Source: Marsupella aquatica
Lineage: Eukaryota; Plantae; Marchantiophyta
DNA: 64,000 bases
Direction: 5' to 3'
Assembly: GCA_973895155.1 (NCBI GenBank)
Contig: OZ316896.1
Span: forward strand, 6,004,166-6,068,165
Shown: positions 1 to 63,668 of the stretch, piece after piece
Position numbering within the stretch: the first letter of the stretch is position 1
Layout: every line of letters starts with the position of its first letter
The notes under the pieces: model-generated
Seen by the model: the letters and a program-made list of their open reading frames with translations, nothing else
What the model was told of the DNA's origin: nothing
The model's database searches: none
Position numbers and translations under genes: made by a program

Positions 1-716
1 GGTTTGAGATTAGCTAAAGTTGTTAGAAGTCTCGTCCATGGATAGCCGTCATTATCCCTATCCATGTCCTGAAGACCATATCCTCGATGAAATTGACCTT
101 TGACCGGAGGAAGCTCAAAAACGCAGTTTCCGTTGTATGAAGTGGGCAAAGTTTGCACTTGAATCTCCTTCCAATCGTTTCCCCTGCGGAAATTTGCCAA
201 CTCGCTTGACCCAGTAATATTGAGGAAGGCATCATATGCACTAACACGATAAAGAACTGGCTGAGATTGAAACTCATTTTGACTCACTGCTTCAAAAATG
301 GATTTCTCAGAAGACTTTGTCGACACAGAAGAGAGATCCCTACCCACACTCTTAGGGGAGATGTCAATAATTTCTGGTACTGCAACTGAGGGGCGAGTCG
401 GGGATTCTGGATCGGAAACATTGATATGTGCAATGTCATCCTTACATGAGACTAGCTCTACATCTGAACCACACTTCAGGTCCCAAGCTCTTTCTGGCAA
501 TATTCCTGAACCATTATCCGACACCTCGTGACTTCTGGATCCATCCCGAGAGTAAAGAATGAACAACTTCCAGATGAAATCATCTTTCAAAAGCCCAAAC
601 CTCGATGAGAGAAAAGACTCCTTGACAGAGATAATAGTATTCTCCGGAACATCCAGAACAACAACATCACCCGTCTTCTTTCTCTCGATCACAACCTTCG
701 ATCCCAATGACGACAT
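1..716 (-). CDS. N-terminal 238 aa of a putative DNA-transposon transposase (bryophyte MULE/SWIM-type-like); runs off the window start
   Basis: Hand translation from the ATG at 716 is open to the window edge (absent from the ORF track because it has no stop): MSSLGSKVVIERKK...QVQTLPTSYNGNCVFELPPVKGQFHRGYGLQDMDRDNDGYPWTRLLTT. The LP-x-x-[FY]-[ND]G-x-x-x-FELPP...MD-x3-DG-x-x-W motif resembles N-termini of bryophyte TE proteins as I recall them. The family call is recollection, not a search. Confidence 0.55.
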   Translation of the reverse strand, partial: MSSLGSKVVIERKKTGDVVVLDVPENTIISVKESFLSSRFGLLKDDFIWKLFILYSRDGSRSHEVSDNGSGILPERAWDLKCGSDVELVSCKDDIAHINVSDPESPTRPSVAVPEIIDISPKSVGRDLSSVSTKSSEKSIFEAVSQNEFQSQPVLYRVSAYDAFLNITGSSELANFRRGNDWKEIQVQTLPTSYNGNCVFELPPVKGQFHRGYGLQDMDRDNDGYPWTRLLTTLANLK

Positions 717-910
717 GCTGGAAGTTTTGGACATTACAGTCTACAACAATCCTCAAATGTGAGATACTTTTCTCTCTTCTTTCTTCAAATACATATGAGG
801 AAACGTGCTTGTGTAGGTGTTGGACTCAACGTATTTATTTAATAAATGCCTCTCATTCCCGTTATCTGACCGTTATTTTGTCTTATATGACACTATTTAC
901 GGAATGATAA

Positions 911-1024
911 AGCTAGCGATCTCGCTAGCTCAATGAACCAAGTAAAATTGTTCAAATCCTTACAAAACACCCTTCACGAGTTCATGTATTTAGTGATCAA
1001 TTTTTGGCTAGCGATGTCGCTAGC
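911..1024. promoter_or_regulatory. Two palindromes GCTAGCGA-NN-TCGCTAGC in the divergent promoter
   Basis: AGCTAGCGA-TC-TCGCTAGCT at 911-930 and GCTAGCGA-TG-TCGCTAGC at 1007-1024. Further copies at 2172-2189 and 4369-4386 (introns). Function is inferred. Confidence 0.6.
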
Positions 1025-1410
1025 AAAAATAGTTTCTCATAAGAGACCATTATGACCGTTTATATCCGTTGGAATTGGTCAACGGGTACCTATATGTCAA
1101 CGGTATGGTACAGTACCGGACACCTGTCTCTTTGTCATTCGATACTTTTCTTTCAGTCATGAGTTCGGTGGTTCGTATTTCCGGAAGTACATGTATACCT
1201 GACGGTGTCTGAAAAATGATTGCGAGGAGAGTCGTACAGAATATCTGTATCTCTTTTCACGACCGGGCGCTGCATTCAGGTGAAAGCAACAGACGAGGGT
1301 ATGATTCTGTCTTTGATTGGAAGATTGATTCTCGGGTTTCTTTATGTTCGCAAAGCGTGTCACCCTCGACCTTGACCTGTTCATACCCTTATCACTTCAC
1401 GGACCCCCTG

Positions 1411-4400
1411 ATGGAGCCATTGTCTTCACCAGAGAGCTTGTCATCAATAGGATCTTTCAAGTCAGTCGAGTCAAGCCAAAGGGAGACAAGGTCTACAGTG
1501 AACAAGAAGGCACTCCAGGCGGGATTGAAAACACCGAGGAGGCCCAAGATGGTGAACCAAGTAGATGTTGTGAATCCAACGTTTCAACCTGGAGCTTCAG
1601 AACCCTATTCTGTTGTCATCAATCGCCATCTTTTCCCTTTTGGAAATGACGAATTTGGATTCCCGCTCGCTCCTCCGAGGATTCCCCTTTGCAGAATGCG
1701 AAACATGCAGATCGTTCGGTCCTTGCAAACAAACTCGATTGTGATCGAGACACTCAAGAATGAATTCCGGACGCAGGGATACATCGAAGATGCTCCTTGA
1801 TTTTACGTCCAAATGACCGGCGAAGATGGCCTTGTCCAGATGTGCGAGGATGTGATTCGGGAGTCATGGGATGACATGTGGATTCTTCAAAATGAAGAAT
1901 TCGAGAGGGAATGTGATTCTCACGAAGCTTTCAAAATTTTGAAAGATAAAATGTTCTGTGTTTTCGATGGAAATCATCGTCTGTACTCATGGATGCAGCT
2001 TGCGGACGAGAATCCCCATGATGTCAAATATCATCCTCGAGTTGTTTGCCGAATTTTCAAGGGTGACAAGAACTCATTCGTGCAGATTGAGTCGGCAATG
2101 CATGCGCTGAATAGTTTTGTTTCTTTTCCTTCAAGCTGTGAACTCTATATAAAATTCTTTCATTTCCTCTTGTTAGCGATCTCGCTGACCTGTTTCTTTT
2201 GTTCAGGTTGACTCAATGTCACGTTGAGAATTCTTGGGTCCTTGAAGCAGAGAGAGTCCACAAGGTGCTCAGTAATGACCTTTCTGTATACAAAGATATC
2301 ATCGATGCAGACAACTACAAACTTTTCCAGCAGAAGATGGCAAATATCAGGAAACTGGCTTGGTATTCGAAGAACATGACACTCGATGCCTGCACGTACA
2401 TTCTGTCTGCTGCTAATATTGCAGCGCAGACGGAAGATTTGAAGAAGAAGTTTCAGTTGAAAGAAGCGCAAGGAGAACCTCTTTCAAAAGCTGCACAAGA
2501 CATGGCAGTCAAAGACATGATGAAGGAGCAACTGGCAGATTGGAATGTGAAGGTGCCAAAGATTGGACCTCTCCTGAATCCTGAGTTTGGTGACTTTTTC
2601 CAGAAGTGTGTTGAGATGCACAACTACTGCAAACATGAGAGGAAGGAGGCCCAACGAACAGACGATAAAGGAAGGGGTAATGTGTCACGTGGTCTCGATC
2701 GTGCGAGGCTATTTACGGGTGTCTCATCGTTGACTCCGCAGCTCAGATGTGTACTCCTCGAGGCACAATGCAGACCTGAACTTCGCAAGAAGTACTTCCA
2801 CCTTGGTCAATTCTCGGACAGCGAAACAAAACTTTGGCTTCACCGATGGGCTGTATGGGAGCAGGTTTAGTCAATTTGTTCTTCGCTCATGTCTGAGATT
2901 ATTTCAGAGATGATCCCAACTGTTCTAGATGCAAGGATCCTTACCTCGTCTGAGAAGACAAAGCCATCGCTGATCCTTGACATAGAGGAGGACTTTGAAG
3001 ATTTCCAAACGAGAGTGAAATCTCATTTTTTCAAACAGATTTGGCCACCAAAGTCGGGTGAGAAGATTGACATCTCACTTTTTCGGAGGAGGGCGAAGAG
3101 ATATACGTATCGTTTTTTTGTGGATAGAGAAGTTGCTGACAAAACATATTGGTGGTCCTATCCTGCTTGCTTCTCGCCTTGGATAGCAGGAGTGAAAGAG
3201 GATCCAACCTCTGTTAAATATGGAGAGTACTCGATGTACCCATGTGAGGGAGTGGAGGCTCCAAGGAAGATGAGTGAGTGGGAAGTCCTTCACTGTCCAT
3301 GGTATTTAGAATCAGACAAATGGGCAGTGACATTTGACACAGCAGAGAAGGCAGCTTTTCATATGATAAATCGAGGCTTGATACCAGAGTCGTACATTAC
3401 AGAGTCCAAATTAGCTCTTGCAGAAGCCGAGGCTGGTGGATGTGAGGCAATGGAGAAAGTTGTTCTTGGTGTAGCTACCATTGTCGACCGGAGTAGATCG
3501 AGGAGACCTCGGAAGGTGCCGGTGAAGGACACGTCCAAAGATGGATCAGTCTTGTCTGGGAAGCAAAGTAAGTCTTTTTCTCCTCTTTTTTTCATACCTC
3601 ATTCGGAGTAATTTTGTCTCAGTCACCTGTCTGACATTAACATGTTTTTCAGAGAAGAGAAAGGCTGCAGCCTCTGGCAGTTTGAAGAGTGGGGCGGATG
3701 ATGGAGAAGAACCCAAGTCTCCTGATGTTGAGGTCACAACAAAATCTGCTGTGGACCTAGGTTCAATCAAGCGTTTAAAGAGGAAGCGCAATGTCCAAAT
3801 TCTCTCCGACTCGGATGAGGAGGAAGCATGCGTTGCGCAAGGAGTAGCACGAATGTGTGGTCTTAAGAAGGACGGTGAGAGGCATTTCTTGGCGAACAGC
3901 AATCTCACGGAAACTGCAAACTCAATTAGCCAGAGGAAAGTAAGACCTCCCTGGATGGGCGATGCGGATCAATGGTTGTCTGGAATGAGCAAATCGATCG
4001 AACACCCAAACGCCGTGATGATCAACGGAAAACATTACGCTGGAATTGGTGCTCACTTGGGTTTCATATTCTTTCCCACGGGTCATCGAACAAGCGTCAC
4101 AGACCGTGAGGTCCCGAAGTGGAATGTTTGGAGTGAGAAATTACCATATTATTTCTTTGGAGTCATGCGTCCGATGCTTGCCGATGATGGTTATGTCGCA
4201 GTTCTTCACAGCTCTGACTATAACCATATGAGGCAAAAAAAAATTGCCGTCGAGCAGAAAAACAAATTTAAACATGTCCGGCAGTATTCGGTTTTGCTTT
4301 CATCTCCTTTGTATCAGGCAGATATGGACATCGAGGTAAGATATCCTCCATATTTTTGTGCAATTTTTGCTAGCGAGCTCGCTAACCAAAAGTGCCCATT

Positions 4401-4934
4401 TCTTACATATTCTCATTTTCAATTCAGGTGGTTACTCTCATTATGGATGTCTTCTGCAAGGTGGAATTCTCGGCAAAAGTCCCGAAACATACAGGATATG
4501 TTCCAATGACTTCCTCGGAGGATGCCCGCCATAAATCGATGTTGAGTGTTTGCTACCCAAAAACTGATCCCAGTCCCAGGGCGGCTTTCGCAGGTTCCAA
4601 TAGATTGTCAATTGGGTTCATGCAAGCCGTAATGGAGATCCTTTCTTTGCCAAAGGACATTGTCATTGACTGGACTGTTGGAGATGGAAGTGCTTTTGCC
4701 GCTGGGGAATACGCTGGGAGATTTGTTTTTGGTGTTGAAGATCGAGACATTCTTCATCTGTGTGCGCAAAGAACTTTGGCAAATGTGTTGGATAGACATG
4801 CCCAGAAGTTGAAAGGGGCCGCAGACCCGAAAAATGATGATCCCAATGATGAAGGGTCGGATGATGAGTTCACCATCCCATGAGATGATCAGGGAGGACC
4901 TTCAGACGAGAAGGATGAATTCGACCTGGAGTAA
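1411..4934 (+). pseudogene. 4-exon gene for a ParB/sulfiredoxin-like domain plus a degenerate beta-class N4C/N6A DNA methyltransferase-like domain (~1,070 aa); TE cargo
   Basis: Exons ~1411-2114, 2207-3567, 3653-4335, 4428-4883 (possibly to 4934) are phase-compatible. Introns 3568-3652 and 4336-4427 are GT-AG; the intron-1 donor at 2115 reads TT (mutated). ParB-like motif FCVFDGNHRLYSW. MTase-like motifs GFIFFPTG...RPMLADDGYVAVLH and LSLPKDIVIDWTVGDGSAFAAGEYAGRFVFGVE. In-frame stops at 1798 (TGA) and 2868 (TAG). Confidence 0.75.
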
Positions 4935-7900
4935 AGCACTTGGCCTTTGATGTAGAACTCCCTATTTGGTGTTTTTCTTTTGTTTATAGAATTTTCGGAT
5001 GTGTAGTATTGATCCGATTCTGGTGATTTCTTCAGTGATAGGCGTTCGGATTGGTTTTCGGAGGAGAGATTCCATCTTCGGAAAGAAATCGAGGATCATT
5101 TTCTTGTGACCCCTGAGAAGGGATTTGCGCTTCCATGCTATCCTGAAAAGACTGCAAAGGAGGTTGATGAAGCGCCCGTCGTTTTGACTTGGGAGGGGAA
5201 AGGTCTGCGGTCAGTGAGGGGTGTTCGGAAAGCCCTTTACTGCCCTCAGTTCATAGATGATGAGGCTGGGACTGTAGCACAGTATGTTGACGGTTTGGCT
5301 GAGGAGACTGATAGGGAGTCCAGTAGCGATCCTAGTAATTCCTCAGATGATTTGGAATCAGAGGATTCTCAATGACTCATGGTCAATTTCAGATGCAATC
5401 TCATTCCAGAAGATATTTGTCATACCAAAGTTTTATTAAAGATGGATTGTGAATGGTTTTTTGACCTGGTTTTGTTGACAGTGATGATGCCTTTTCATTC
5501 AGTTCAGTGTAGTGAAGATCTTGATTTTTGAGTTTGTGAATATTTAAGTATCTGCATTTTCATTTTCCGTAACTGTTTCACAATATATATCGACAATCTT
5601 ACTTGGGAATGCGCCTTAACTACCCTGAAGTTACGCACAAACTTGCCTCGCTAGCATGCTGTCCTCGCTAGCAAAACTCCTGTTTGCTCGCACAATAGAA
5701 TACCTCCTTCTAGTGTATATGTTTGTCCAAGTGCTATATAGTAACGATGGGGATGGAATCTCATTAAAACCTCCCCTAGTTTCTTTTGGGAGGAAAGAGT
5801 GTTCCCATCCCCCCTTCTTAGAGTGTATTGTAATGTAATTTATTGAGCCTATGGGGTAATATCTAAGTTGAAGTATATTGTGTCACCTAGTATGATAAAT
5901 TGAACTACAGTTAGTAGTCTTGTAGAACTACTCGATCAGATTAGGTTGTTTGTAAGACTAGCTGTAGTCGATGGGGTAAGTGTTGATGATGAATGAGCGT
6001 AGTTGTCACAATTCAAAGTAAAAGGAATTGAGATCCGCCGATAAATGACTTTGGATTGTAAGATCAGAGGTCAAAGGAATGGTTTGCATATATCAGGGAT
6101 CGGAGGCGAAATTCATACCAAGCTCTTGTCTGTGTCTTTGTCCAGCTTTTAATTGGTAAATTAGTTGCTCCTGTGCGCCTGTTTGAAAGCCTTTGACTCA
6201 TTGCACTTTAGCCTTGTTGGTGTAGTTTTGCTCTTGAAACCTGGAGTCTCTCTCATCTGAGTTCTTCATGCTTGGTTGAATCTAGTTTCCAATGAACTCT
6301 TTGATGAATGCCATTGCAGTCCCTCAATCCAATCAATAATGTGTACATTTTGCTCTCTTGTTTCTCCCATTCATTTTATTCTTTGGCTTTGCTTGTAGCG
6401 TTGTTGTTGGCTTTTCAAAATATGGTTGTGGGATTGCTTTGCTTTCAAACAAATGTTGGTCCGAGTCACTAATAGATTCTGGCAGAAAAAAACAAACATA
6501 GTGCTCGCAACCTATAGTAAGTTGCGTTGTTTAGGTGGAGGCTGTTGTTTTTATCTTCTTGCTATGCAGCATCGGGTAGTAATAGGCTACATTACGTGTT
6601 AAAGTTGATTTTTATTCCTTGTTATCTGTTCCTGAGTCTGAAGTTCCTTGCATTGGTTTCCCATGTCCTCTATTTGATTCCTACAGCAATTTGAAAAGAT
6701 TGTGCATGCCTATGGAGTGAGTTAGTTCTTGATGTATTGCAGGTGGTAAGGATTTTGTGAAGTCAGAGCTTTGCATAATTATGCTGGCTTGGAATCCACT
6801 GGATGTCAATTGTCATCCCATGTTGCTCGTGAGAGAAAAAGAATTTAGGTGCAATGTGCTTAATCTGTTCCGCACATGCCCTGTTATCCTCAAATAGCAT
6901 AGTTGAAGAGGTCAGTCTTGGCTTACCTGTGTGTTGGAGAACATGGTCTATAACATGGTGAAGCCATATACATTCACGGCTGGCCTCATACAATGCTAAA
7001 ATCTCCTAATGGTTTGAAGAAGTTGTGGTTAGGGATTGCTTTGTGCTCGTCTAGGAGATGGTTGTAGGGCCAATAAGAAGACATACCCTATATGAGATTT
7101 TGCGTCTGCTGGGTCTGAAAGGTAGCCTGCATCAACGTATCAGTTATGTTACAATTATTCATGGCTGGGAAATGTAGTCCCATATTTGTAGTGCCATTTA
7201 AGGATTTGAATTTTTTTTAGGACATTCCAGTGGCGAATGGTTGGCTGAGAGTTGTGGCGTGCCAATAAATTCATAGCAAAAGCTATGTTAGGGCAAGTTT
7301 GATTTGCAATAAACATTAAGGCCCCTATTGCAGATAGGTATGGCTTTTCGGAGCCAAGTAGTGGCTCCTCCTCCGTTCTTTAAATTTGGAAAATATCTTT
7401 TTCTCTATCCAATGCTTGCAGATCCATTGGTGATTCGACTGCTTTTGCTTTTTGCATGTTAAATTGCTTTAGCATTCTACGTGTGTATGTAGATTGATGG
7501 AGTAGTATTCCATCAGAAAGGTGTTCAAACTGTAGTCCAAGGTAGAAGGTAGTCTTGCCTAAATCTTGCATTTCAAATACGTGTTTTAGCAGCTTTATAG
7601 TTTCCAGCATTACCTTGCTAGTGTCAAATAAATTTAAGTTGTCCACGTATATGACTACAATTATGAACTCACTGCTTTCAAGTTTGATGAATAGGCATGG
7701 GGCGATGTCGGAATTCTTGAATCCCATAGCAAGCATCTTAGCTTTAAAACGCTTGTACTAGGTCCGTCCACTCTGTTTAGCCCATACATAGAGCTCCCCC
7801 TGAATTGATTAAAAGAGTTGGCCATACAAAAGCTTGGGTTTTCTATAGATGCTCCCATTGACTATGGTAGTCAACTCTTTTAATTAATTCAGGGGGAGCT

Positions 7901-8949
7901 TCCATGTGTATAGTCGTATCTAAGTGACCGTATAAATAGGCTGTAACAATATCCATCTGATGTATGGATAGTCTGTGATGGAGTGAAAAGGCTATGAGGT
8001 ATTTGTATGTTATTATATCCATCACAAGGGAACCAGTCAGTTCATAGTCTCTTCCTGGGATTTGAGTGAATCCCTTGGCGACAAGATGGGCTTTATATCT
8101 CTTATGCATTGCGCTTTTTAATAAACATCCATTTATACCCAATGAGGTGTGTATAAAATGAAACTGGAGTAATGGACCCAAAAACCTGATGTGAAATAAG
8201 GGAGTCCAATTCTGAGTTTATTGCCAGTTCCCAGTCTTGCCAATCAGGTTGTTGGAAAGCTTCAATAATCTTTATAAGATTAGGTAGGTCGTCCATTATC
8301 TCTTGTGAGATTTGAAATGCAAATTGATCATTTAATGAAGTTTTTACTGAGTTGTCCCAAATGTGTCCGATATTGCTATAGTTGATTGCAATTTCCTCAT
8401 TCTCAGTACTTGGTATTTGAGTAGGTGTAGCATTTACCAATGGGGTGGCCTTGAAAGGTACTTCTCCCCCTATTGCTGCCTCTGCCTAGGAATGGGTTTT
8501 CGTATCCATTTTGCTGTCGGGTTCTGCTGAGTATTGAAGTGCAATTTTGGGGTCAGTTGTGGGGGTAGAGTTCCAGGGAGTCTCTCCTTTGTATTCTGCT
8601 GCAACAAAATCTGATGTTTTTTGGATAGCAACATGTGAGCAATAAGTTCAGAGTATTTAGTAAAGTTCATATTCCTGTATAGCGTCGATAGTTTCAGATT
8701 TGTGGAATGAAATGTGGACAATGTTTTTTTCTATTTGCTCTTCATCTCCCACCAGATGTCCATAGATTGCCAGTTGGGAGACAATCTAAACAATTTGTTG
8801 TTGTAATCTGCGATTGTTTTGTGGTCCTAAACTTGAAGGTTGACCCAATCATGCCTGCCTGCAGGGAGAAAAATTGTTCGTGTATGATCAAACCTGGAAT
8901 GAAGCTCATCCCATAAGAGGCGGGGGTTATATTCATTCATATACTGTCG

Positions 8950-11728: not shown

Positions 11729-12330
11729 CTAGCCTAATACCCATGCGGTGCACAAAATATTTTGAGGTGAGAGCAGGATGTTGAGGAGTGGCAAAGATGT
11801 TGAGGCCACGGAGATGCCAAGGAGAGGGCAAGGTTAATTTTGAGGCAAGGCAAAGATGTCCAGGTCAGGAAAAGATAGGGAGCTGAGAGAAAGATGTCGA
11901 GGCAAAGGGCAAGATGTCAAGGAGAGGCAAAGATAAGCAGGTGAGGTAAAGATGTTGAGGTGAAAAAGATGTCAATGAGAGAGAGATGTTGAGGTGAGGA
12001 AAAGAAATCAAGGTGAGAAAAGGAGGTTGAGGAGAGAAAAGAAGGCAAGGTGAAAAAACTATATATAAAGATGAGGAAAAGATGTCGAGGAGAGAAAATA
12101 TGTCAAGGATCTGACAAAAAGATATTGCAGCACTGAGATAAAGATGTCAAGGTGAGCAAAAGGTGAGATATTGAGTTGAGGAAAAGATGTCAAGGAGGAA
12201 AAAGATGTCGAGAGAAAAAATGTCAAAGGTGAGAAAAAAGTCGTGGTGAGATAAAGATGTCAGTGTGAGAAAAAAATGGCGAGATGAGAGAAGCATGTCA
12301 AGATAAGGTAAGGTAAAGTTGTTGTGATGG
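11729..12330 (-). mobile_element. Non-autonomous Helitron-like element with ~18-bp purine-rich minisatellite
   Basis: Minus strand ends GTGCACCGCATGGGTATTAGGCTAG|T (degenerate Helitron 3' hairpin + CTAG, CTAG at 11729-11732). It adjoins a degenerate array of (A)GAAAAGATGTCGAGG(T/A)G units. Confidence 0.65.
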
Positions 12331-13626
12331 TGTTTAAACCACAAATTGTGTGACCCCATTATTGAGAAGCGCAATTGGGCCTCTCTTGAACCATTAGATT
12401 TTCACTTATAATTGTGCCTATGCTATGTGGTCCAATCCGATCTATGGCTCAAAACATAGATCTCAATGAGATCTACGTCTCACAAAAAAATGAGACAAAA
12501 TATTCTTGAGAGCATCAAGGGCTAACCATTCCAAAATTTCAATTTTGATCAAACAAATGAGTTTTATTCATTTTTTGATTGGTTTGTTGAAGAGACTTGT
12601 CTAAGAGACGCAATGTCCGGCCATATTGAAGGTTAACAATGAACATAGGTCACATTTTATGGCTTTTTAGGTAAATATCTCGATGAGATGGCCAGATTGA
12701 AGAGTGTCATCATTTAATGAGCGTATCTCTTCAATGACAAATTTTTTGAGGCTCACAATAAATGGGGATTTGAGCTCCATCTGATCCCTTTGAACAAATT
12801 ATGTTTTTTTGGATGATTCTGGTGTGGGTAAAATTGTTGTGACTATGGGAAATTCTAGATTGTTGTTTAGACTTCTTGAGCACAATGACCACAACAATGA
12901 CGCGACATTAGTTTGTTACCCAACAATGTTTTTCATTGATTTGTTGATGATTGGTTGACAAGTGTGCTTTGTTTACATCTTGGTTCACATGTCTATACCT
13001 ATTGACCATGAGGATGACATGATAGGATAAATTAGCTATTTGCTGTGAAACCCTAGTTTTCCAAAACCTTATCCTAGGATAAAGCCTTTACAAAATGTAA
13101 GTACTAACAATGCTTTTATTTGATTGAATGTCAGATGTGACATGCATCTAAAGTGTAGACTAGGTATTGACAAGTTGATTATCCTAGTGTGTAGTACAAA
13201 ATCACACTTGTTAAAACAAGGTGCATTAGAGATGTCATTTCTAATAGATGTATTTTTTCTTTTCAATTCTACTTGATGTCCCCTTTTGGCCTTGTGTTTT
13301 TTCTTTATCCCCTTTTGTGGCCCTTTCTTGTCCTGTGCTACCCTATTGTCCCTTGAATGATAGCATCCTTGTCTTTCATGATCATTTGCCCTAATTTTCT
13401 TGATGTTCTTGTTGAAAGTTGTAGCACCATTGCAACTGGCAACAAAAGTATAAAAGAAGCCTGGGTTTCACACTCCCAGCATTTTGAAATTAGATTGTTT
13501 AAACCTAAACCCAAACCCTAAACAATAGACTAGCTACATGCCCTCATTCACCAATCAACACACTTTTGTTGCATAAGAAAGATAAAAACTAGCTTTCAAT
13601 GCGATAAAGGTGATTTATGTATTGTA

Positions 13627-13945
13627 ATAGCCCAATGCCTGTGCGTTGCATGAAAGATGTCGAGGAGAGAAAAGTTGTCAAGGTGATAAAAGATGTCAAG
13701 ATGATAAAAGATGTTGAGGCGATAGAAGATGTCGAGGAGAGAAAAGATGTCGAGGTGATAAAAGATATTGACGTGATAGAAGATGTTGAGGAGAGAAAAG
13801 ATGTCGAGGTGATGAAAGATGTCAAGGAGAGGAAAAATGTCAAGGTGAGAAAGATGTTGAGGTGAGGAAAAGATGTCGAGGTGACAGAAGAAGTTGAGGA
13901 GAGAAAAGGATGTCGAGGAGAGAAAAGATGTGAAGATGAGAAACA
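13627..13945 (-). repeat. Second minisatellite array (18-bp unit AAAGATGTCGAGG[TA]GA[GT]A) with Helitron-like 3' end
   Basis: atagcccaatgcctgtgcgttgca precedes ~16 well-conserved units; produces spurious KDVEERK / LSSTSFI ORFs. Confidence 0.8.
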
Positions 13946-14369
13946 TTGTGACAGTCATCCCTTTTTTCCCATCCATGTGCCCCCCTTCCCCTTTCTCCTT
14001 GCCTCTCCCCCTCTTTGTTTTGTTTCCAAGGTTTTCTTTGGGACAATAAAAGTCAAATTTGGTAAGACAATTGCGGTGAAAAATCATACAAATATTTGTC
14101 ATAGTTTATGGGTGTGAAAGTCTCATTATTTTGGCACAATATATATACAACTGTGAGTATGTATTTAAAGTATTTTGGGGAGACATAAATCCTAAATTAT
14201 CTATCATTCTTCTCTTTCCCCACTTTTTTAACATGTCTTGATTTAATAACTTGTTTTTTCCCTTTTATCTTCTCCCTCCCCCTTTTTTTCTAAACCCGGC
14301 CATTTTCTCATAAATTCTCCCATCATCTCTCATGTCTCCTCAATGTCATAGTTCTAATTATATGTGAAC

Positions 14370-14860
14370 ATAGCATGATGCATGCATGTAAGTTGCACAA
14401 AAAATTTTGAGGTGAGAAAAGATGGCGAGGTGAGGAAAAGAAGTTGAGGTGAGAAAAAATATCGAGGAGAGAAAAGATGGCAAGGTGAGAAATAAAGCAA
14501 AGATGAGGAAAAGATGTCAAGGAGAGAATAAATGTCAAGGGTTAGGAAAAGATGTCTTGGTGAGATAAGATTTCAAGGTAAGTAAAGACGGCAAGATATG
14601 AAAAAGATAAGGTGTGGAGGTGAGAAAAGATGTCAAGGTGAAAAAAAATATCAAGCCGAGTGAGAAAGATGTAATTGAGGAGAGAAAATATGTTGAGAAG
14701 AGAAAAGTCATCGAGGGTGGGAAGAAAATGTCATGGTGGCACGCAGATGTTCATGTGAAAAAAGATGTGAATGCAAGGTAAAGATGTTTAGGACTCGAGA
14801 TAAATATGAAAAGATGAGAAAAACATGTCGAGCAAGAAAATATGTCAAGGTGAGGCAAAA
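14370..14860 (-). repeat. Third, more degenerate array of the same minisatellite
   Basis: The leader gttgcacaaaaaattttgaggtgag matches 11748-11772, followed by gaaaagatgtcaaggtga-type units. Confidence 0.75.
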
Positions 14861-15091: not shown

Positions 15092-15900
15092 GTCGAAGGT
15101 AATATCCCCCCTCCTCATGGCCTCCACTGTTGAGTATTGCTCTTAGTCTTGTGACTCTAGGGCTAACCGTAGTTAGACTAACTCAGGTTAGGACCTAGCT
15201 AAGGTTAGTAGTGATGCATGTTGTATATAACCAGGGCTGATGCCAGCCCTTGGTCGATCTTCAATTCATTGTTGGAGTGGAGCAAGAGAGAAGTAAAGGT
15301 CTCTTGCTTTCCCGTGGACATAACCTAAGTCGAGAGGTGAACCATGTACTCGCTCTGTCAATTACTTTGTATGGTATTTATATGTGCATTATGTTTTGGG
15401 ATTAGGAATATACCCAACAAATGGTCGGTATCAGAGCAAATATATCTCACCTTGTTACCAGTCTGATTCTCAACTTGGGCTTTCCACTCCTTAAAAGTGA
15501 CAAAAACATTATAGTTATTGTGTAGAAAGTATATCCACACATACCTTGAGTAATCATCAATGAACGTGACATAGTAAACTCTTTCATAATGTGAGGGAGT
15601 AGGGGCTGGTCCCCACACATGTACATACTCAGGTACCTCCTTGCTGGTGTGAGTTCTAACTCCAAAGGGTTTCCTATGTTGTTTTCCAAGCACACAATGC
15701 TCACAAAAATCCAACTTACAAGATTGCAAATTAGAAAATAATCATTTATTTTGAAGAACAACCAAATCTTTTTCACTCATGTGACCCAATATGAAGTGCC
15801 ACAGTTGAGCCGTCTCCTCATGAGATAAGGCTACATTGGCTTCATCACAGACTACATTGTCCTCCAAAACGTATAGATTTTTGTGCCTCTTTCCCTTCAA
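15092..15900. mobile_element. Ty1/copia fragment: plus-strand LTR + PBS joined to a minus-strand GAG-pre-integrase/integrase fragment
   Basis: LTR-like CCCGTGGAC...GAACCA motif and ...CCAACA end at 15419, then TGGTCGGTATCAGAGC (tRNA-Met PBS-like). Minus-strand LWHF..GHMSEK, FCEHCVLGKQ, YYVTFIDDYSRYVWIYFL, FKEWKAQVENQTG. Confidence 0.8.
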
Positions 15901-16339: not shown

Positions 16340-17470
16340 GTAGGACATTCCAAATGAATCAAGCCATGTTAGACGTTGAGTACATTGGTGTGGATGACTT
16401 GAATGAGGAGTAGTCCATGCTGACTCGAGTATAGCTTGGGTTTTCTATGAGAGGATTTTGGTTTAAGAGTGCTGAGACCAAAGTAGGCTTGCGTTTGTGA
16501 TTTTTGGAGAATGCACTCTTCCTGAGTACAGAGAAATTGCAGCGTGGGATAGACGATAGACTCAGTGTTCAGTCATGGTGTGCAAGTTCTTCAAGGATGT
16601 GCATTGTTGCTTCCTTCCACTTGGTGAAGAGGACAAGACTATACGTGGGTTCTTTTGTCGGGGAGGTGTTATTGAGAAGTTGTGTACCTCGGAAATAGAC
16701 TACTTGCTGGCCTATACATGGAAGAAGTTGTTGAGCACTTCAGTGACTACCATGGATTGATCGAGCACTTTGCAAAGACAATTCATTTCATTTCTATCCA
16801 TTGGGTAGAGTGCTTAATTCTGGCCAACAAACAGTTGGATCTAGGAGACTTCCTGCATCCAGGTGATGATCAAATGTTGGATGAGGCGCCCAACCCAGAG
16901 GGGTATTTACAAACGACAGGAAATAGCAAACAGTAACAGAAAACAGAAACTGGTAACAGGAAAATGAGTGATAATTTCTTTTGAACTTTTTTTGAACTTT
17001 TTTTTTGGGGAAAAAAAAGTTTTTTTTCTTTCAAAATTTTATTTTATTTGCTAGCGCCCGACGCTGGTAATGCTAGCGCCCAAAGCTAGCCAAAAAATGT
17101 TGTAACTTAGATTTTTTTGGAAAATGAGACTTTTTAGAAAATATTTTGACATGGTTATTTTTCCTGGTAACAGTAACTTTCCTGGTACCAGTAAACCTGT
17201 TTCGTGTTTACTGTCACGCGTGCCATACCCAACCCAGATGATGGGGAGGCATATCAACCTACATTGCCCAAATGTGAGCTGTCTCCGTAGCTTCACATTG
17301 TCTTGTATGATTACAAGGAAAGTTGTGCAACTGAGGTTGAGGCTGAAAGGCTAAAGGCTGGGGAAGAGGTCGTCCGGAAGAAATGGAACTAGAGGCAGAG
17401 GCGTGATTCTTACAAAAGAAGGAAGGCAGATGAGGAGTACTACTGGTCTGGTGAAGGAACTCCTTAAGTA
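16340..17470 (+). pseudogene. Additional unknown ORF inside the CACTA element, split by a MITE
   Basis: Removing 16901-17239 joins ...QMLDEAPNP to DDGEAYQPTLPKCELS...EAERLKAGEEVVRKKW...EEYYWSGEGTP* in frame. Residual stops remain. Confidence 0.5.
16901..17230. mobile_element. Mutator-like MITE (330 bp)
   Basis: 9-bp TSD AACCCAGAG/AACCCAGAT (16892-16900, 17231-17239); GGGTAT...ATACCC termini with degenerate ~70-bp TIRs; AT-rich core. Confidence 0.85.
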
Positions 17471-18039: not shown

Positions 18040-21000
18040 GAAGATGGGAATGACAATGGACCATCCTCTCATAGTGTGCATCGGAACCATAATACACTGA
18101 TCCACCTAGCTAGGAAATACTATAGTGTCACTAACCTCAGTGAGTGACACTATAGTATGAGAGGATGGTGCAGCTACACGAGTCGTGTCTACCCAATAGA
18201 ACCCACACTCATCTTTCACCATGGTGGCTCTATGTGGAGGTGACATGATGGATTTGTGCTACCGCACCTCTAACATAGTAGTAGTAAATGACCCAAAGTG
18301 AACGTCTAAAATATCCAATACAGTGCCACAATAGGGAATCTCAACATCACCTGGGTCTATCAACATGAACACTCCTGAGTTACATGTACTCTTCTTCATG
18401 TGATCTATCCTCCAAGTGCGAAAGTGGTGCCCTGACTCATACATGTGTGTATGGGTCGTTGCCCACAACCTTGGTTCCCTAATGATGTTCTGTACATCAA
18501 TGGGAATGGATAAGGGTCCATGCTCTGCAAGGAGCCTATCCATGCGCTCCAATGCCCATACGCAAAATAATGCATACCGTCGTGGAACTATCAGTTGCTG
18601 CTCCAAGAATGCACTGCAAAAAATGTATGAATCCATGAGAATATTGCACAATCCAAAGAAGTGCTCCTTGAACCCACTCTAACTTCTACACACATAGAAT
18701 GTAGAACACCGTCTACTGTTAGATTAACATATATATAGAGTTGCATATATGTACCTATGCAACTCCCTCCACTGAGACACCTTTGGGCAATTTCCCAACA
18801 CATAATTGTGGATCTGTAGGCAAAGTATGTTGTCATGTAGTGAATGCTTTTTTGATGCACCCATCAAATGCAACCCACCATTGTCATCATCTTGTGCCTC
18901 TTCCCAAGCTGTAGGAGCTTTTGTGTCCAAACTCCCTATCATCCCTCCGGAATAAAGAGGCACTCCGACATGATATACCCCGTTGCCATACTTCCCTCTA
19001 GTCGAGCTGGTTGACACACCATGGACTTGAGCACTTTCATAAAGCGCTCTACCCAATACATTTAACATGCATGGACAGGACCAGCAATCGCGACCTCATC
19101 CACCAAGTGACATAGTAAATGCAATTGCATGTCAAATATGCATGGGGGAAACACCTTCTCCATATTGCACATCACGCGAGCTAACCTCTCCCTCATCAAA
19201 ACAATATCAGACTCCTTTATCTCCTTAGCGCATACCCACCTATGTTCCTCCTCAAAACCATCAAAGATTTTGTCTGTCAAATCCACATAGGGCCATAGAA
19301 AAATGAGTTTGAAATACTTGTTGAATTACAGGGCTCCTCCAGCGGTAACAAGAACTTGCAAGAGAGCAATGGAAGAGAGGGTACATTATCATACCTGAAA
19401 ATGGAGCACATCTCATATATAGTCAGACGGAGTAAACAACGCTCCCGGGAATCATCACAACAACGCAAGACTGCTGGTAGCACACGTTGTATCAACTTGT
19501 GATAATCATGAGACTTCAACCCTATTGGGGGTATGTGATCATTCCTTCTAGTGCACCCACAAAAACCAGCTCCGTAATGGCTAGGGAACTTCATCTCGCT
19601 TATCATCCCATTCATGTCCTTCAAAACCTCTCTTGGCAAAATCCAAGGACCAGGAGGTTTCTCCCCAGTACGTGTTATCCAACAACTCTTCACTACTCCA
19701 ACCCTCTCAACATCCTCTCGGACTCCACGAGTGTCATTCGTCCCATAAATGTGCTTCACCAAGTTCTTAGCAACATTCACTTCAATGTGCATGGGGTCCA
19801 ACAACCATTGAACCTGGAGTCTCTCAAAATTGAAATACCATATTGAATCAGTTCACTTGCATTCTCTAAATTAAGCATGTTATTGGTCTAATTTGTTGTA
19901 AAGGAACCATGCACTTCTATCACTTACCCTCCAATAAGGCAAGTCCCACATAGCTGAGCGTCGGTTTACTCCACAATCCTTGGGTTTCAGTAACTTTGCT
20001 TCCACCTTCTCTGCCATTTGAATTTGTCCTTCAGCTGAAGGGCCATTAGGACATGGCCGCAATTCAGTCTATGCCCAATGTGTTGTGTTTTGTTGCAAGT
20101 GGTCATCCATTGCCAACCGGACCCTACTGCCCTCATATATGGTTTTGTGCAGTAGTCTTGAGCTCCTCCCATGCAACTCTGGGCCACATGAAGGGCAAGC
20201 TGAAAAACCTGTCACCTTTAGGCCAGATATTGTCCCCATACCTGCCATTTCATTGAACCATGTTCAGACCACAAATAACCCCAAGACTTGCATTGTACAT
20301 GACATTGTGCAAACAATAGCCATTGGGTTGCCCAATGAATTACCTGGACCATTTGTGGTGCAATGAGTGATCATCACCCTCATATTGAAGGTCTTGCCAT
20401 TGCTTGCTTCACGAGTGACATCTATTGTCACTGCTCCAACCTCCCACAGATTATGTAGCTCTTCATAAGCTGGAGCCAAACAGATATCAGGATTCTTACA
20501 GGCCTTGGGTCCAGGAATTATAGCTAATAGAAGCACATGACCCTTCTTCATTGCCAACCATGGAGGGATGTTCTGATTTATCAAAAGAACAGGCCAGATG
20601 GACTTAGGCTTCTGTTGTTGTTTATATGGGTTCACTCCATCGATTGCCAACCCCAAATAAACATTTCTTGGCTCCTGGGCAAAATTTGGCCAAGTGGCAT
20701 CAATGTGCTTCCACGCTGGACTATCTTGGTGGTATTGCATTATCCCTGGTGGGGATTTGTTCTCCACATGCCAAGTCTGTAGTGTGGATAAGTGCTTTCG
20801 TTGGTAGAGATGCTGAAGTTGGGGAGTGATTGGAAAATAACGAAAAACCTGCCAGATCCAATGTAACGTCGTCAATTTGACGACAATCATACTAAACGTC
20901 CTTCCACACTACGTATTATTGAAACTAACATCGTGGAGGATGACGTTTCTTACATACGATGTACCATGCAACGTTAGTTATTGCATCCCATATGACGTAA

Positions 21001-23690
21001 AAACAAAAAAACGTCAGGTAGAAAGACGTAAAGTGAGATGGACGACGTAAAGTAATCAATTACATAGTCATATACGATGTTGTTTGAAAGAATGCAACGT
21101 TAAAAGTCAGACCTTCTTGTTCTCGCATTGCGTTGAGGAAAACATTACCTTTTCTGCAATCTTGTCTCTAATGGTGTCTGGTCGATACCGTGGAAGCCTA
21201 CACTGCTCCTCTGGGCAGTGAGTGTGATCCTTGTACACCCCTCTATACAAGATGCACCCACCTGGGCACATGTGGATAGTCTCTAAAGCCAATCCAATTG
21301 AGGCTAACAACTTCTTAGCCTCCCTCACACATCCAAGGAGAGTGTTTGGTTGGGGCAAGAGTTTGTCGTGGAACAATTGGAAGAGTGCATCTGTATGGAC
21401 ATCCAAACCATTGAAAACTCCTTGCAAATTCAACATCAACAAAGTTGCACCCAACCTGGATTTGCAAAACCACAAACACCAGACTTTTTGCAGTTAGTCC
21501 AAGTAGCTAGATGGCATGCCTGGCACTACAACTTAGACTGCCCAATATTCACTGGATGAAATTCCAGAGTTGTGATCAGTTTAGGACAACCTTACCGTGA
21601 GGATGGAGATCCCTCAAATAGTGGTGTTCTGGCTTCAGCCTCCAAGTGATCCCAATCTTCTTGATCCACTTCCATGATAGGGTGCTCGGCGTCAGGTGCA
21701 TGAGGTCCAAAGTGAACGTCAATAAGGTGGGCAAAGGCATCTTCTTCAAGGATAGGGTCATCTCCCTCATCTCCCTCATCGTCAACATCATCATCCAACT
21801 CTCCATCATCATCCAACTCTCCATCATATGCATCATGGTACTCTTCATCCTCATCGTCCATCTCATCATGGTCAAGGGGCTGACCCTCAGCATCCTCCTC
21901 ATCTGAGAAATGTAAAGTGGCACGTACGTGAAAGGCACGGGCTGATGTAGTCATCATTGATGGGTGAGGTGTGGGAGTAATATGTACACCATCCTAGAGT
22001 TTTCAATATGCAATGATAGATCAAATTAGAGAAAGGGTTTTCGTGATAAAGCTTACAATGAAACATCAATAATGAAAAATGCAAGGGTCACCCCATAATG
22101 AATATGTCATGTACACATGTAAACATCAATGCCAATCATAATCTACGAGAATCTCTTCCCCTGCTCTAATGGTGCGGGTAGGATGTGTCAAGATGTAATG
22201 CGTGCATGCTACAGGCAAATGAGGGTGACTCTGGTCATGGAACTCGTGCCACTCAGCGATTGGGCTAAACCCTAAATGCCGAGAACCAATAGTGCTATTG
22301 ATGTAACCCGCTGAGTTCCCTGTGCGAGGTGGGTAACCATCAATCTGAGCATACCTAGGGTCCAACTTTAGTGACATGCCATATCAACTAAAGGTTGGGC
22401 ACTGTCAGGACAAGATGCGCCATCTCGCCGCCAAATACTTGGGCCCATAGAATGGAAACAACTGAGGCAAATCATTGGGTGCACAACCAGTAGGGACCAC
22501 AATATCCACAAGAGCAAATACTCCAAGTCCTACATGAGTCCCCAATGTGGAGGGGAGGATGACCCATGGGTGGTCCCAAACTATAATAGGCTCCCAAAGC
22601 GGGAGGTCCATAGGCGGGTCCATAGGAGTCCAAACTGGGCTGGGAAGGAGTCCTTTAAGATGTCCAAGGCTCTCCCTCGCAACTGTCTCAGTGCCCGGGA
22701 CACCAATGCATCAAGAAAAGGGCATCGGGGTGGAACAATCCTAGGTGGACAGGACTCAATCGATTGGGGTCTAGTGGTCACCACTACTCCCCTCTCAATA
22801 GGGTGCATCCTAAACACTCTCCCCCTCCTATGAAATACACGGTCTATCTCCCTCAATGTGGCTGGCAAATTGGATGGATGCATGGATGAGTGGTGCGAGT
22901 GCACGATATGCAATGACTCTCAAGCGGTCCACAGGCGAAGATCGCACTACAACAGGAATTTGTTCCACATGTTCACCAAAACAAGTTTAGAATATGACAA
23001 TCAAAGAATATGACAATCAAAAAATAATTCAAGGAAGGAGATGTTATCATAATTGCAATATCCAACAAAATTGTATTACCTCTCGAGTTGGGGGGGGTGT
23101 AACGACCATGGATCCCTAAATGGCTAAGGACAATGGTCCTCTCGTGTAAGACAACACCCTTGCATTGTCTGCAAGGGCAAGGCATCTTGTGAAATGGCCC
23201 AATCCCCTGAAGAGCAGCCATGGCCTCTCCAAATCCATCAGCACGATGGGAGCTTCGGCCTCTCTTGCCCTCGGAACGATGTCTGCGTCGATGACGATTG
23301 GATCGGTGATGCCTAGATCGATCATACGTTTGGTGAGTAATCTCTCTCCCGGTCTGACAGGTCATCCCTCCCCCTATGATGATGGTCATCTCTGCGTTGG
23401 GTGTAAGTACCCCAACCATAGTCCTCATAGGATGAGTCATCCCTCCTCCTCCCTCCCTCGTCATTCCTCCTCCTCCGCCGCTCGTCATCGCTCCTATAGC
23501 CCAATGAAGCTGAACTCCCCCTATGCCAATGATGGTGTCTATGTCGGTGAGAACTACCGCCATGCTCATCATCATCGTCATACGAGTCATCCCTTCGCCT
23601 ATCCGACTCATCATACATCCCCCTATGATGATGATGGTATCTGTGCCGACGATGTCTGCCCCCATCATGGTCCGATGCATAGGTTGCCAT
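18040..23690 (-). pseudogene. CACTA TnpD-type transposase (transposase-associated Zn domain, Transposase_21, DUF4218/DUF4216-like), multi-exon, disrupted
   Basis: MPCPCRQCK...LSHLGIHG; IHMCPGGCILY...CRLPRY; RYFPITPQLQ...DSPAWKHID...EPRNVYLGLAIDGVNPY...WPVLLINQNIPPW; LDPMHIEVNVAKNL; GLKSHDYHKL; MEKVFPPCIFDMQLHLLCHLVDEVAIAGPVH; YCGTVLDI. Multiple stops and frameshifts. Confidence 0.93.
22126..22946 (-). pseudogene. SET-domain (lysine methyltransferase-like) exon nested in the transposase intron
   Basis: LPSTLGTHVGLGVFA (SET-N), GNSAGYINS (RFINH-like) and TRTIRAGEEILVDY (ELxFDY-like SET-C) in one frame with two internal stops (22405-22126 region). Acceptor TTGTAG at 22947. Confidence 0.85.
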
Positions 23691-24108
23691 GTCCCCTGTG
23701 ATCAAATTTACAAAGGCCCCCACAACATATTAAACCCCAAGCATAAACTATCCCGCAATGTTAACCAAAATAGCGTCCAGCCACACAATGTTCTTCGCAA
23801 ATTAACGTCGTTGTTTAGGTTGCGGGGAACAAGCCAAATTTAATTTACGTAGCTATGTACTACGTACTTAATAAGTTAACGTCATTGGGTATGACATAAT
23901 TATGTGTAACGTCACCACTAAACCCTACACCCCTGGTTAACGTTGTGATTAGCAACGTTAAATTAGGGTAACGACGGGTCTCCAAGGTTTGTGGGTTGCT
24001 GCTGTTTTCCTTTAACAAAACATCGGGAAGTGACTCAAATGTGACTCACATTCAACATTAATTCAACACTTCCCCTCTCCCCCTCTCGACCTCCTATCTT
24101 AACAGTGA

Positions 24109-25960
24109 ATGACTATGGCTCATCCAAGCTATCTCCCTTCCAGTGGAGAATTTGATGTAGACTTGGTGGCTATGGATGATCCAGGGGAGGTAGAAAAGGT
24201 GCGTAAAGCTATGCAATCGACACATTCGTTGATACATGCTTTCAACTAGAGTTGGAAGTTCTTGGGAGGAAAAGGAAGCAAGGAGTCTCAGTTTCTGGAG
24301 TACCTGGAAAATATAGAGGCCAATGCTCCTGCCCTCGATGATTATGTGGAAACTGAGAATGCAACGCTCTTGGGGGAGGATTGTGGGCCTTCGATTGATG
24401 CTCTCATCTCCTTCCCGTCCCTACTAGATGATGGGTGGGATGATCTTGCCTTCAATGGAATGCAGCCTAATTCTCAGGCACCTAGTGGGACCCCAATCAA
24501 GAGCGTGGTCAGGGTAGCACATGACAGATTCCAGCCTGATCAGGATCGGGACTCTCGCAGGCGAAGGAGGCATCATGATAGAACACATAGCAGCAATAGC
24601 AGCCTTGATGAGAGAAGACGGAAGGGGAAAGGGAAGGAGTATAGAGATGCAGATCCACACAATAGAGGTACATACAAAAGAAGAAGAATAGAGGGAGATG
24701 CAAGGGCAGACAGAAGAGAGAGGTACTCACCTCAGCGTGAACGTCACTCCCACAAGAAGCGACAACCTTCTCATGTGCGACCTATAACTACTGTTGTGAG
24801 TCAAGACAAACTCCCAACCATCACCTTGGATGCGTTTGATGCTAGGCCGGATGTTCTGGATGAGAAGGCCCTCACAAATCGAGTGCAGATGTGTTGTGCC
24901 AAGCACTGTCCTGGTTGGACAACTTGGAAGGATCTCGCACAGAACCCAAAGAAGTTTCAGCTCCTCTTGAACGATGTGCAAGCTAGGTTTAGGAACGGCC
25001 GTGAAATAGACTACAGGCACATCAGACAGAAGATCGTAGGCTACCTTGCAGATTGGAGGTTTAGATGGAGAAACAAGGTTCAAAAAATGAGATGCCCAAG
25101 GACAGAGCAATACCTGAAACCAGAAGGAATGAGCGACGCCGACTTCAAGTTGATCGTGGCTGAGTTGGAAGCAGCACCTGACACCCCAGTAGGCAAGCGA
25201 GTGCACATGGGGGACAAAGCTGCTGCAGCCCACAAATCAAATGGCCACCTACGTGTGACCAATTTCTAGGGCCATGGAGGATGGCAAGGCTTCCTCGCAA
25301 CCTATGGAAGTCCCCAACCCTCTTCAAAGCACAGCTTGCTCATGCTTCGGTCGCTGCAGTGAGAACATTAACTTAATGTCGTTTTTACGTTCTAACGTCG
25401 CAAGTTCTCCATTTTACGTCTACCCACCCTACGTACACCCTACCTAAAGTCGGCTCTCACAATGTTACATTTAATTAACGTCGTTAGGTACATTATACTT
25501 AACGACGGTGGTGACGACGTTCTCCAATTTCCTGCATAAACGCAAGTCTGGAGCCAACGCCAAGCCAAGTGAGCAGGAGCGGCTCTATTCAAAACGCTAT
25601 GGCCTGACGGCCCTATGGGCTAAGCTGGACTCTGTCCCGAAGGACCACCCAATGGTAAGTTACATAGTCAGGTTAGGTTCCTTCTATACTAGGTTTTGCA
25701 TCCACTATTTGCAGGAGGTAAACTGATCCCTTATGTCATGTGCAGGAGGATTGGAGTCCTCCAAAGGGGTTAGTGGCACGGCCCATTGCGGAAGATGAGG
25801 AGGTAGATCATGGAGGGGAGGAGCCTGATACACATGAGGAGGCCTTAGTAGGCTGTGGGCAGGAGGGCAGTTTAGGTACACAAGGCCGGTCATCTTCTGA
25901 CCTCTCCCCTCCAGTGGAGACTGATAGGGGTCATACCAGCCATAGACGACGGAGAGAGAG
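24109..25960 (+). pseudogene. CACTA TnpA/ORF2-like accessory protein, divergent from TnpD
   Basis: 335-aa ORF with an R/H/S-rich linker and WTTWKDL...LLNDVQARF...IVGYLADWRFRWR, resembling plant TnpA-type proteins. Downstream exon remnants at 25540-25653 and 25746-25960. Confidence 0.55.
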
Positions 25961-63464: not shown

Positions 63465-63668
63465 AAAAAATTAGGGTGTGCTTAAGTTCACCCAATAATT
63501 TGTTAGTTTTCACACCCATACCTCAAGTTAGTCTGATGTGGACAACATGATTGTTTGTGTCAGGCCAAAAAATTAGGGTGTGCTTAAGTTCACCCAATAA
63601 TTTGTTAGTTTTCACACCCATACCTCAAGTTAGTCTGATGTGGACAACATGATTGTTTGTGTCAGGCC
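63465..63668. repeat. Perfect 102-bp tandem duplication
   Basis: aaaaaattagggtgtgcttaagttcacc...gtttgtgtcaggcc occurs twice, at 63465-63566 and 63567-63668, with no visible differences. Confidence 0.95.

Follow-up and report, generated by a model that had tools for sequence, protein, structure and literature searches.

The locus and its gene

The left end of a 64,000-nucleotide stretch of the liverwort Marsupella aquatica (contig OZ316896.1, positions 6,004,166 to 6,068,165; this whole stretch is "the window" throughout) holds an intron-containing gene that joins an N-terminal half, likely ParB-like, to a C-terminal half with a DNA methyltransferase fold. The gene lies in a multicopy repeat unit, likely a DNA transposon, together with four copies of an 18-bp palindrome and a second gene that points away from it (Table 1). 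Splicing its four exons yields 1,067 codons, in agreement with the frame of some 1,070 residues proposed in an initial annotation that was made from the letters alone. The exon model is confirmed by proteins of Riccia sorocarpa, because their colinear alignments cross all three junctions: P0149 (1,207 amino acids) aligns with spliced residues 5-700 (28%, E 7e-66) and P0156 with residues 797-1057 (27%, E 7e-16). The frame stops at 4881-4883; to reach 4934, where the initial annotation had placed the end of the gene, would therefore take a third read-through. The gene probably does have a fifth coding segment: of 1,268 segments of the window, 5013-5375 alone is accepted by a profile of four Riccia C-terminal tails (E 7e-4), and a pairwise comparison gives E 0.043. 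No clean splice into that segment was found in the window copy.

The window copy of the gene is dead. It has the lesions that had been listed for it, premature stops at codons 130 and 456 and a broken splice donor, TT instead of GT, at intron 1 (introns 2 and 3 begin with GT, and AG closes each of the three). These lesions are private to it, since other copies read C at 1798 in place of the TGA, G at 2115 (in all mapped depth of all four runs, X1, X2, X3 and X5, which makes a GT donor) and mostly G at 2868 (in most of the mapped depth of X1, X3 and X5 and in part of that of X2), as read from the 40 difference rows listed of 991. The motifs quoted in the initial annotation, DGNHR (1966-1980) and, in the C-terminal half, FFPT and DWTVGDGS (Table 1), are all present.

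The repeat unit

The repeat unit extends from beyond the left edge of the window, before base 1, to about 5850; its left end falls outside the 64 kb, and its right end lies at about 5715-5850. Summed contig depth in run X1 is 15,377-140,698 over 1-5850 versus 82-199 over 5851-6786 (a sum that is not a copy number and shows a repeat with a boundary), and the step at about 5850 recurs in X2, X3 and X5. In X1, 4,945 contigs map to 1-7000, at identities from below 90% to above 99%. This is a dispersed multicopy unit with a discrete boundary, as is expected of a DNA transposon, and it is likely to be one. The initial annotation had called the gene transposon cargo: the multicopy repeat and its depth step bear this out, and the term draws on repeat depth only, because no transposase was identified in the part of the unit within the window. 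A TAGTG at 5711-5715 was considered as a CACTA end and set aside: high depth runs past it, and no partner was found within the window. The right edge of the unit carries a G/C-rich hairpin at which depth (at 5786) is greater than in the adjoining element body in each of the four runs, in X5 by about ten times; the hairpin is either an element terminus that short non-autonomous copies have too, or a small repeat in its own right.

The observed-to-expected CpG ratio of the unit is 0.73; repeats next to it have 0.33-0.48, and the region of the host gene has 0.71. The youth of the insertion accounts for the high ratio as well as protection would, and C>T/G>A changes make up 10 of the 22 private differences listed for the window copy.

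Head-to-head with the gene, a 246-codon open frame (3-740, first ATG at 734) leaves the window at its left edge. Among the family variants listed for this divergent gene, four of five are synonymous; family, protein and viral searches with it returned no informative match. We take it to recall the N-termini of Zisupton/KDZ-type transposases, an assumption that the searches neither confirmed nor excluded.

A methyltransferase fold without its catalytic motif

The beta-class fold claimed for the C-terminal half in the initial annotation has held up. An AlphaFold2 model of the corresponding domain of Riccia protein P0150 (predicted local distance difference test, pLDDT, 66.9; predicted template-modelling score, pTM, 0.68) matches M1.HpyAVI, CcrM, M.BceJIV and M.MboIIA in Foldseek at E 1e-11 to 1e-10 and viral N4/N6 methylases at E 2e-11. 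Profile A1 finds M1.HpyAVI (5HEK) at E 2e-7; for window exon 4 alone M1.HpyAVI is the only PDB match, at E 0.64. The anticipated match to PF01555 is found in 9 of 12 Riccia proteins (at best 26.2 bits, E 9e-6, under the gathering score of 26.7) and in none of the window exons. As modelled, the C-terminal domain is a beta-class amino-methyltransferase fold, permuted so that motif IV comes before motif I; the fold is that of the Riccia homologue, and the motif order comes from the alignment of the family.

What the window family does not have is a catalytic motif of the form (D/N/S)-P-P-(Y/F/W) or D-L/I-P-Y. Motif IV reads FFPT in the window copy and FLPT or FIPT across its family: none of the four runs lists a variant of 1% or above for the Phe codon (4069-4071), and 4072 is C or A in all mapped depth. 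Retention of DPPY or SPPY in other copies, which had been raised as a possibility, is thus not borne out. Twenty-two relatives cover the loop, with DLPT in seven, DLPS in four, DMPT in four, DMPS in three, SLPT in two, and DFPI and DVPF in one each, so that the catalytic position is Asp in 20 and Ser in two; an aromatic fourth residue is absent from 21 and present in one. With 21 of 22 relatives lacking the aromatic residue and Phe in every contig of the window family, the degeneration is family-wide, and the suggestion of a pseudo-enzyme or reader, offered in the initial annotation for this copy, is strengthened because it is. CcrM binds the target amine through hydrogen bonds from the Asp and Pro of its DPPY (PMC10406627); by analogy, Phe in the position of that Asp would most likely abolish catalysis. 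In the motif I region D-x-x-x-G-x-G and the motif II acid (E) are kept, and the Pro/Phe positions are altered (DWTVGDGS, DFAGGWGA).

Eight of 13 variant rows in 4020-4140 are synonymous, as are five of the six sites at which a second letter is common and not private (4056, 4068, 4089, 4092, 4095, 4106). These counts come from a small unitig sample and are not a ratio of nonsynonymous to synonymous rates (dN/dS); the bias suggests a protein that is still under constraint. The top phage match has DLPYG followed by WD where the plant proteins have D-x-P-x-G followed by WN, and DLPY is found in 63 of the 65 viral relatives retrieved.

The ParB-like half

Is the N-terminal half a ParB domain? Several weak tests agree that it likely is ParB-like, which is why the call, made in the initial annotation on a single signature, stands at moderate support. 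P-L-C-R, V-R, G-Y, G-N-H-R (G123 N124 H125 R126) and a final N are invariant in 13 of 13 rows. G-N-H-R has the G-x-x-R form of the ParB/Srx motif and aligns with GERR/GHxR of bacterial ParB; chromosomal ParB carries GERRxRA (PMC7333895). When profiles are aligned with those of phage and bacterial ParB N-domains after removal, by our own choice, of a 43-residue insert, 86-89 columns are colinear at scores of 28-29 (E 3e-4 to 4e-4, HH probability at most 40%); shuffled controls reach a maximum of 15-16 with the insert removed and up to 17 overall, the real score exceeds 40 of 40 shuffles in each of four pairings, and ParA and methylase control profiles give no significant match. Among the 99 family members, a DGQHR model matches five, the window exon included (best E 0.001), and weak family matches are to DUF1015 in four and to DndB in three, with DUF2399 also among the most frequent; DUF1015, DndB and DGQHR we take to belong to the ParB superfamily. 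Atlas structure rows for the N-domain include ParB_N, DndB and ParB-N + N6_N4_Mtase clusters (template-modelling score 0.48-0.55 for ParB_N and DndB), all of them under the naming bar, and its Atlas feature neighbours include DUF3723 (0.96) and ParB_N (0.91). Hidden Markov model searches of the PDB with profiles A2 and A3 gave nothing relevant.

The region after the N-domain is all-helical, and only a weak alignment to KorB (8qa8) spans it; KorB is the only row to cover the N-terminal part among the 50 VIA matches listed. A homodimer prediction for the N-terminal 395 residues of P0034 scored 0.00, with no alignment used and the fold uncertain, and counts neither way. For the N-domain as compared in Atlas, residues 200-352 of P0092, the nearest feature neighbours are fungal DUF3723 clusters and an unnamed cluster with cnidarian members, a hint that ParB-like proteins of mobile elements may form a wider family among eukaryotes.

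Palindromes in the unit

The unit carries an 18-bp palindrome, GCTAGCGA-NN-TCGCTAGC, in four full copies with up to 3 mismatches: two in the divergent promoter, one in intron 1, one in intron 3 and none in intron 2. Against these four full sites in 1-5830, shuffling the unit 300 times gave no such site, and the remaining 58 kb has none; nine of the ten core hexamers in the unit are non-coding. ParB proteins act on palindromic sites in cis, parS; these four dyads are candidate sites of that kind. Three X2 contigs with an otherwise different intron 1 keep the right half-site at a similar distance from the acceptor (they have a loose end at 2204 and an agreement of 0.72), a weak sign of conservation.

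Four half-sites with one mismatch each also lie outside the unit, at 17048-17092 near a CACTA remnant, and may be there by chance.

Relatives in liverworts and ferns

A search with exon 1 (E up to 0.001) returned 145 clusters at 50% identity. Organism names are at hand for 15 of 30 relatives looked up, nine from Riccia sorocarpa and six from Adiantum, the other 15 being from Logan, ENA or JGI; relatives are full length in Riccia and partial in Adiantum, and many annotations in both are truncated or fragmented. The Riccia C-terminal region retrieves 15 proteins, all of them from Riccia, whose many paralogues lie on six or more contigs that differ in length. A quick tree built from 84 N-domains (15 of 99 rows having been dropped or merged for length) separates a fern group, a third group (support 96) and a group that unites the window gene with all 11 labelled Riccia rows (support 94).

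A metagenome scan with exon 2 left one locus among 95 candidates, a 68-residue match at 30%; a GTDB scan with profile A3 left one of 30 candidates, an open reading frame read as a DUF1015-type protein, and the same profile found no match in 151 genomes of the phylum concerned. Viral scans found no relative, and for P0003 the tblastn matches in phages and plasmids stayed at E 2-9. One Adiantum nelumboides model, P0093, combines the ParB-like domain with a Ty3 gag region in a single gene; a nested insertion that gene prediction has run together is the probable reason.

Known systems of similar design

A protein of this design is already in print, and the novelty implied in the initial annotation was to that extent overrated. 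Sola1-1_Ec32 of the brown alga Ectocarpus has an accessory gene for a 1104-residue protein with ParB and N4C/N6A methyltransferase domains, on the strand opposite the transposase, and its authors propose that the protein binds and modifies its own element (PMC12477816). The likeness comprises the same two domains in one protein of comparable length (at least 1,067 residues in the window), a large repeat and a second gene on the opposite strand. It is a likeness of description; neither a Sola transposase nor an AACCG end was identified in the window unit. The algal protein is predicted to be active, whereas the land-plant window family has lost the catalytic motif throughout; the main text on Sola1-1_Ec32 makes no mention of palindromes, whereas the window unit has its internal dyads. 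Plavaka elements of Bostrychia encode a ParB-like protein, PAG3, with inverted repeats alongside that are proposed as its binding sites (bioRxiv 10.1101/2025.02.11.637652). Here too a ParB-like domain rides on a DNA transposon, and a PF01555 methylase is on the same element; there two genes (PAG2/PAG3) join the methylase to SET and ParB to a 2-oxoglutarate (2OG) oxygenase, in place of the single fusion of the window family, and the repeats form tandem arrays adjoining PAG3 instead of single dyads in promoter and introns. A green-algal case reportedly goes back to Iyer 2011.

Among phages and prophages, five fusions of ParB-N to a beta-class methyltransferase (about 410-430 residues) were retrieved; ParB-terminase loci are also known there (PMC4738411). 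The fusions have the domain order of the plant protein, and the plant N-domain profile fits their ParB-N better than it fits Spo0J by a wide margin, and better than a mixed set by a narrow one. The plant proteins are about 2.5 times longer and have a helical insert, a helical middle of about 450 residues, introns and no DPPY.

The VANC proteins of VANDAL elements work alike without any expectation of homology: they are element-encoded and their short motifs are enriched in the introns and intergenic parts of their own elements, although these motifs are 8-9 bp, non-palindromic and in tandem, and VANC function has been shown by experiment (PMC5735166). MpDN4MT1a/b of Marchantia and rotifer N4CMT are, like the product of the window gene, eukaryotic proteins with an amino-methyltransferase fold of prokaryotic type (the P0150 model matches N4CMT, 8s9o, in Foldseek at E 3e-8), but they are active host enzymes with TSPPY or SPPY, and the window gene is repeat-borne and lacks the motif (bioRxiv 10.1101/2021.02.12.428880; PMC10406627). 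The link to Marchantia DN4MT1 drawn in the initial annotation is not supported: TSPPY occurs in none of the 22 relatives, nor in the window family, and the MpDN4MT1 preprint makes no mention of ParB (bioRxiv 10.1101/2021.02.12.428880). DUF3723 (PF12520) is a conserved cargo of fungal Starships (bioRxiv 10.1101/2021.12.13.472469). As the top Atlas feature neighbour of a relative's N-domain (189 of 256 features) and an accessory gene of giant mobile elements it is a lead only: the 25 Pfam families listed, of 44, for the 99 members do not include it, and ParB goes unmentioned in the Starship paper (bioRxiv 10.1101/2021.12.13.472469).

A literature search, with most subscription journals and Repbase beyond its reach, found no report of ParB with a DNA methyltransferase on a land-plant transposon. 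The window gene should be filed as one that works like the algal ParB-methylase accessory protein, and not as an active beta-class methyltransferase or a relative of MpDN4MT1.

What the protein may do

We read the gene as an accessory gene of a multicopy repeat, in whose product a ParB-like half binds the element's own dyads beside a pseudo-methylase half, for promoter control or for shielding; this we hold tentatively, at somewhat less than an even chance. Gene structure, private lesions, repeat context, fold, family-wide catalytic loss and four non-coding palindromes are established, and the steps beyond them would be these. The intact protein would be a self-recognition factor whose ParB-like half binds the palindromes in its own promoter and introns. 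A dimer would recognise the dyad in the manner of ParB at parS, where ParB dimers bind a site of 16 bp (PMC7333895). Having loaded at the dyads, the protein might spread along the element in a manner dependent on cytidine triphosphate (CTP), and the pseudo-methylase half may be a non-catalytic module that adds binding of DNA, of a base or of S-adenosylmethionine. The outcome would be that the divergent promoter is kept accessible, controlled, or shielded from host silencing by 5-methylcytosine, as VANC does for VANDAL; the motifs bound by VANC21 lie in introns and between the genes of the element that encodes it (PMC5735166). With the catalytic residue lost family-wide from the methylase half, "marking" may be a matter of binding and not of methylation.

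A good deal weighs against this reading. Its ParB component has no Pfam ParB match in window exon 1 and no Foldseek match of the N-terminal model at E 0.001; the profile alignment was made with an insert removed by choice and with the insert kept drops to a score of 20 (E 0.015-0.019); against Spo0J alone it is insignificant (E 0.26-0.49); the KorB alignment (Z 5.2, root-mean-square deviation 7.1, 177 aligned) is inside the noise band, and the folded N-terminal model is without the first strand; all Atlas structure rows of the N-domain are under the naming bar; and no helix-turn-helix was demonstrated after the domain. As to the element, no transposase, terminal repeats or target-site duplication were identified for the unit within the window, the palindromes could instead be sites for the product of the divergent gene, and the window copy, carrying its C>T/G>A changes, is therefore without lasting protection. 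Asp persists, finally, at the catalytic position of most relatives.

That last point counts towards an alternative that seems unlikely to us, in which the methyltransferase is active at least in the D-x-P-x lineages and would write N6-methyladenine or N4-methylcytosine on or near the element after targeting by ParB, the window lineage either working through an unusual site or having been disabled recently. Asp in 20 and Ser in two of 22 relatives would suit it, as would the one Adiantum protein with DVPFG, which is near the DLPYG of the top-ranked phage methylases, the kept Gly-x-Gly loop and motif II acid, and the activity that the Ectocarpus authors predict for the algal protein (PMC12477816). 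It is hard to square with the loss of the aromatic fourth residue from all but one of those relatives, with Riccia domains that stay below the PF01555 cut-off, and with Phe in the window family where the Asp of CcrM bonds the target amine (PMC10406627). The protein might, on the other hand, be a structural helper of transposition, which bridges or compacts the element at the dyads so that a transposase can pair the ends, or the dyads might be bound by the divergent gene's product; this too is doubtful. ParB does bridge and compact DNA from parS (PMC7333895), two half-sites are no more than about 200 bp from the right edge, and the head-to-head arrangement with a second constrained gene recalls the opposite-strand layout of Sola1-1_Ec32 (PMC12477816), but all four full dyads are internal, in promoter and introns, with no subterminal arrays, a pattern nearer to that of VANC (PMC5735166), and the searches put no family name to the divergent gene.

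A further view makes the gene a passenger: captured long ago, it would have been amplified along with a non-autonomous repeat and have no role now, and the palindromes would be by-products. The dead window copy, the broken annotations in Riccia and Adiantum and the lack of a transposase in the part of the unit within the window speak for it; copies free of the three lesions, the mostly synonymous family variants near motif IV, dyads far above chance expectation, and ParB-type residues and a first intron position kept across the liverwort, fern and third sequence groups speak against it, and we consider it very improbable. A bolder version of the self-recognition reading is itself unlikely: that liverwort and fern transposons carry a working ParB/parS-type CTP-gated clamp, with the dead methylase as reader or shield, and that the same module is present in Starship DUF3723 cargo. 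If that were true, giant mobile elements of eukaryotes would have in a ParB-derived module a general means of recognising themselves, and a ParB clamp that depends on CTP would be a novelty for the plant nucleus.

For plants, VANC is the main worked example of how a large transposon distinguishes itself from its host and evades silencing. New here are the land-plant members, a catalytic residue lost throughout the family and a defined dyad inside the element; with an 18-bp candidate site, lesion-free copies and full-length liverwort relatives, the idea of self-binding and self-modification put forward in the algal papers becomes testable in land plants. Should binding fail, what is left is another decayed cargo gene of a sort already published.

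Features of the window

Table 1. Coordinates of the gene, the repeat unit and associated elements (positions in the window)
Feature	Position	Strand	Remarks
Repeat unit, likely DNA transposon	1..5850		contig depth step
Divergent head-to-head gene, leaves window at left	3..734	-	candidate transposase N-terminus
Palindrome copy 1	912..929		between divergent genes
Palindrome copy 2	1007..1024		between divergent genes; dyad reaches 1000-1030
Exon 1	1411..2114	+	disordered N-terminus and ParB-like domain (IPLCR...VR...GY...DGNHR...AMHALN), helical insert of ~43 residues; TGA 1798-1800
Intron 1	2115..2206	+	donor TT here (2115-2116), GT in other copies
Palindrome copy 3	2172..2189		intron 1; 3 mismatches to consensus
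Exon 2	2207..3567	+	all-helical middle, presumed DNA-binding/dimer part; TAG 2868-2870
Exon 3	3653..4335	+	charged linker, followed by the first half of the methyltransferase fold; FFPT at the place of motif IV, 4069-4080 (FLPT in the family)
Palindrome copy 4	4369..4386		intron 3
Exon 4	4428..4883	+	methyltransferase motifs X-I-II (DWTVGDGS 4668-4691, GVEDR); stop 4881-4883
Probable fifth coding segment	5013..5375	+	LPxY...FIDDEA tail common to Riccia proteins
Two half-sites (CTCGCTAGC), direct orientation	5648..5672 (starts 5648, 5665)		near right end
G/C-rich hairpin, right edge of repeat	5749..5812		fold -12.8 kcal/mol

Elsewhere in the window lie remains of other mobile elements and a host gene. 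Directly to the right of the repeat unit lies a decayed Copia-type pol (6763-8485, minus strand; RVT_2 at E 2e-16 and 3e-17), followed by a field of degenerate low-complexity tandem repeats (11755-14853) and a second integrase remnant (15361-15741; rve, E 1.5e-4). A decayed CACTA/EnSpm element at 18262-25266 has Transposase_21 at 20267-20908 (minus strand, E 5e-38) and a divergent frame of 339 codons (24250-25266, plus strand) with no Pfam match; its Transposase_21 was considered as the partner of the ParB-like gene and rejected, lying 14 kb past the depth step and beyond the Copia remains. Inverted repeat pairs at 28852-29086/41916-42117 (73%) and 31291-31396/41633-41737 (85%) bracket about 10-13 kb, within which minus-strand frames at 36830-38687 have no Pfam match; this is possibly another mobile element. 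The host gene (44224-50432, plus strand) starts with a DWNN domain (E 4e-20) and is RBBP6-like by our reading, and an exact 103-bp tandem duplication is found at 63465-63669.

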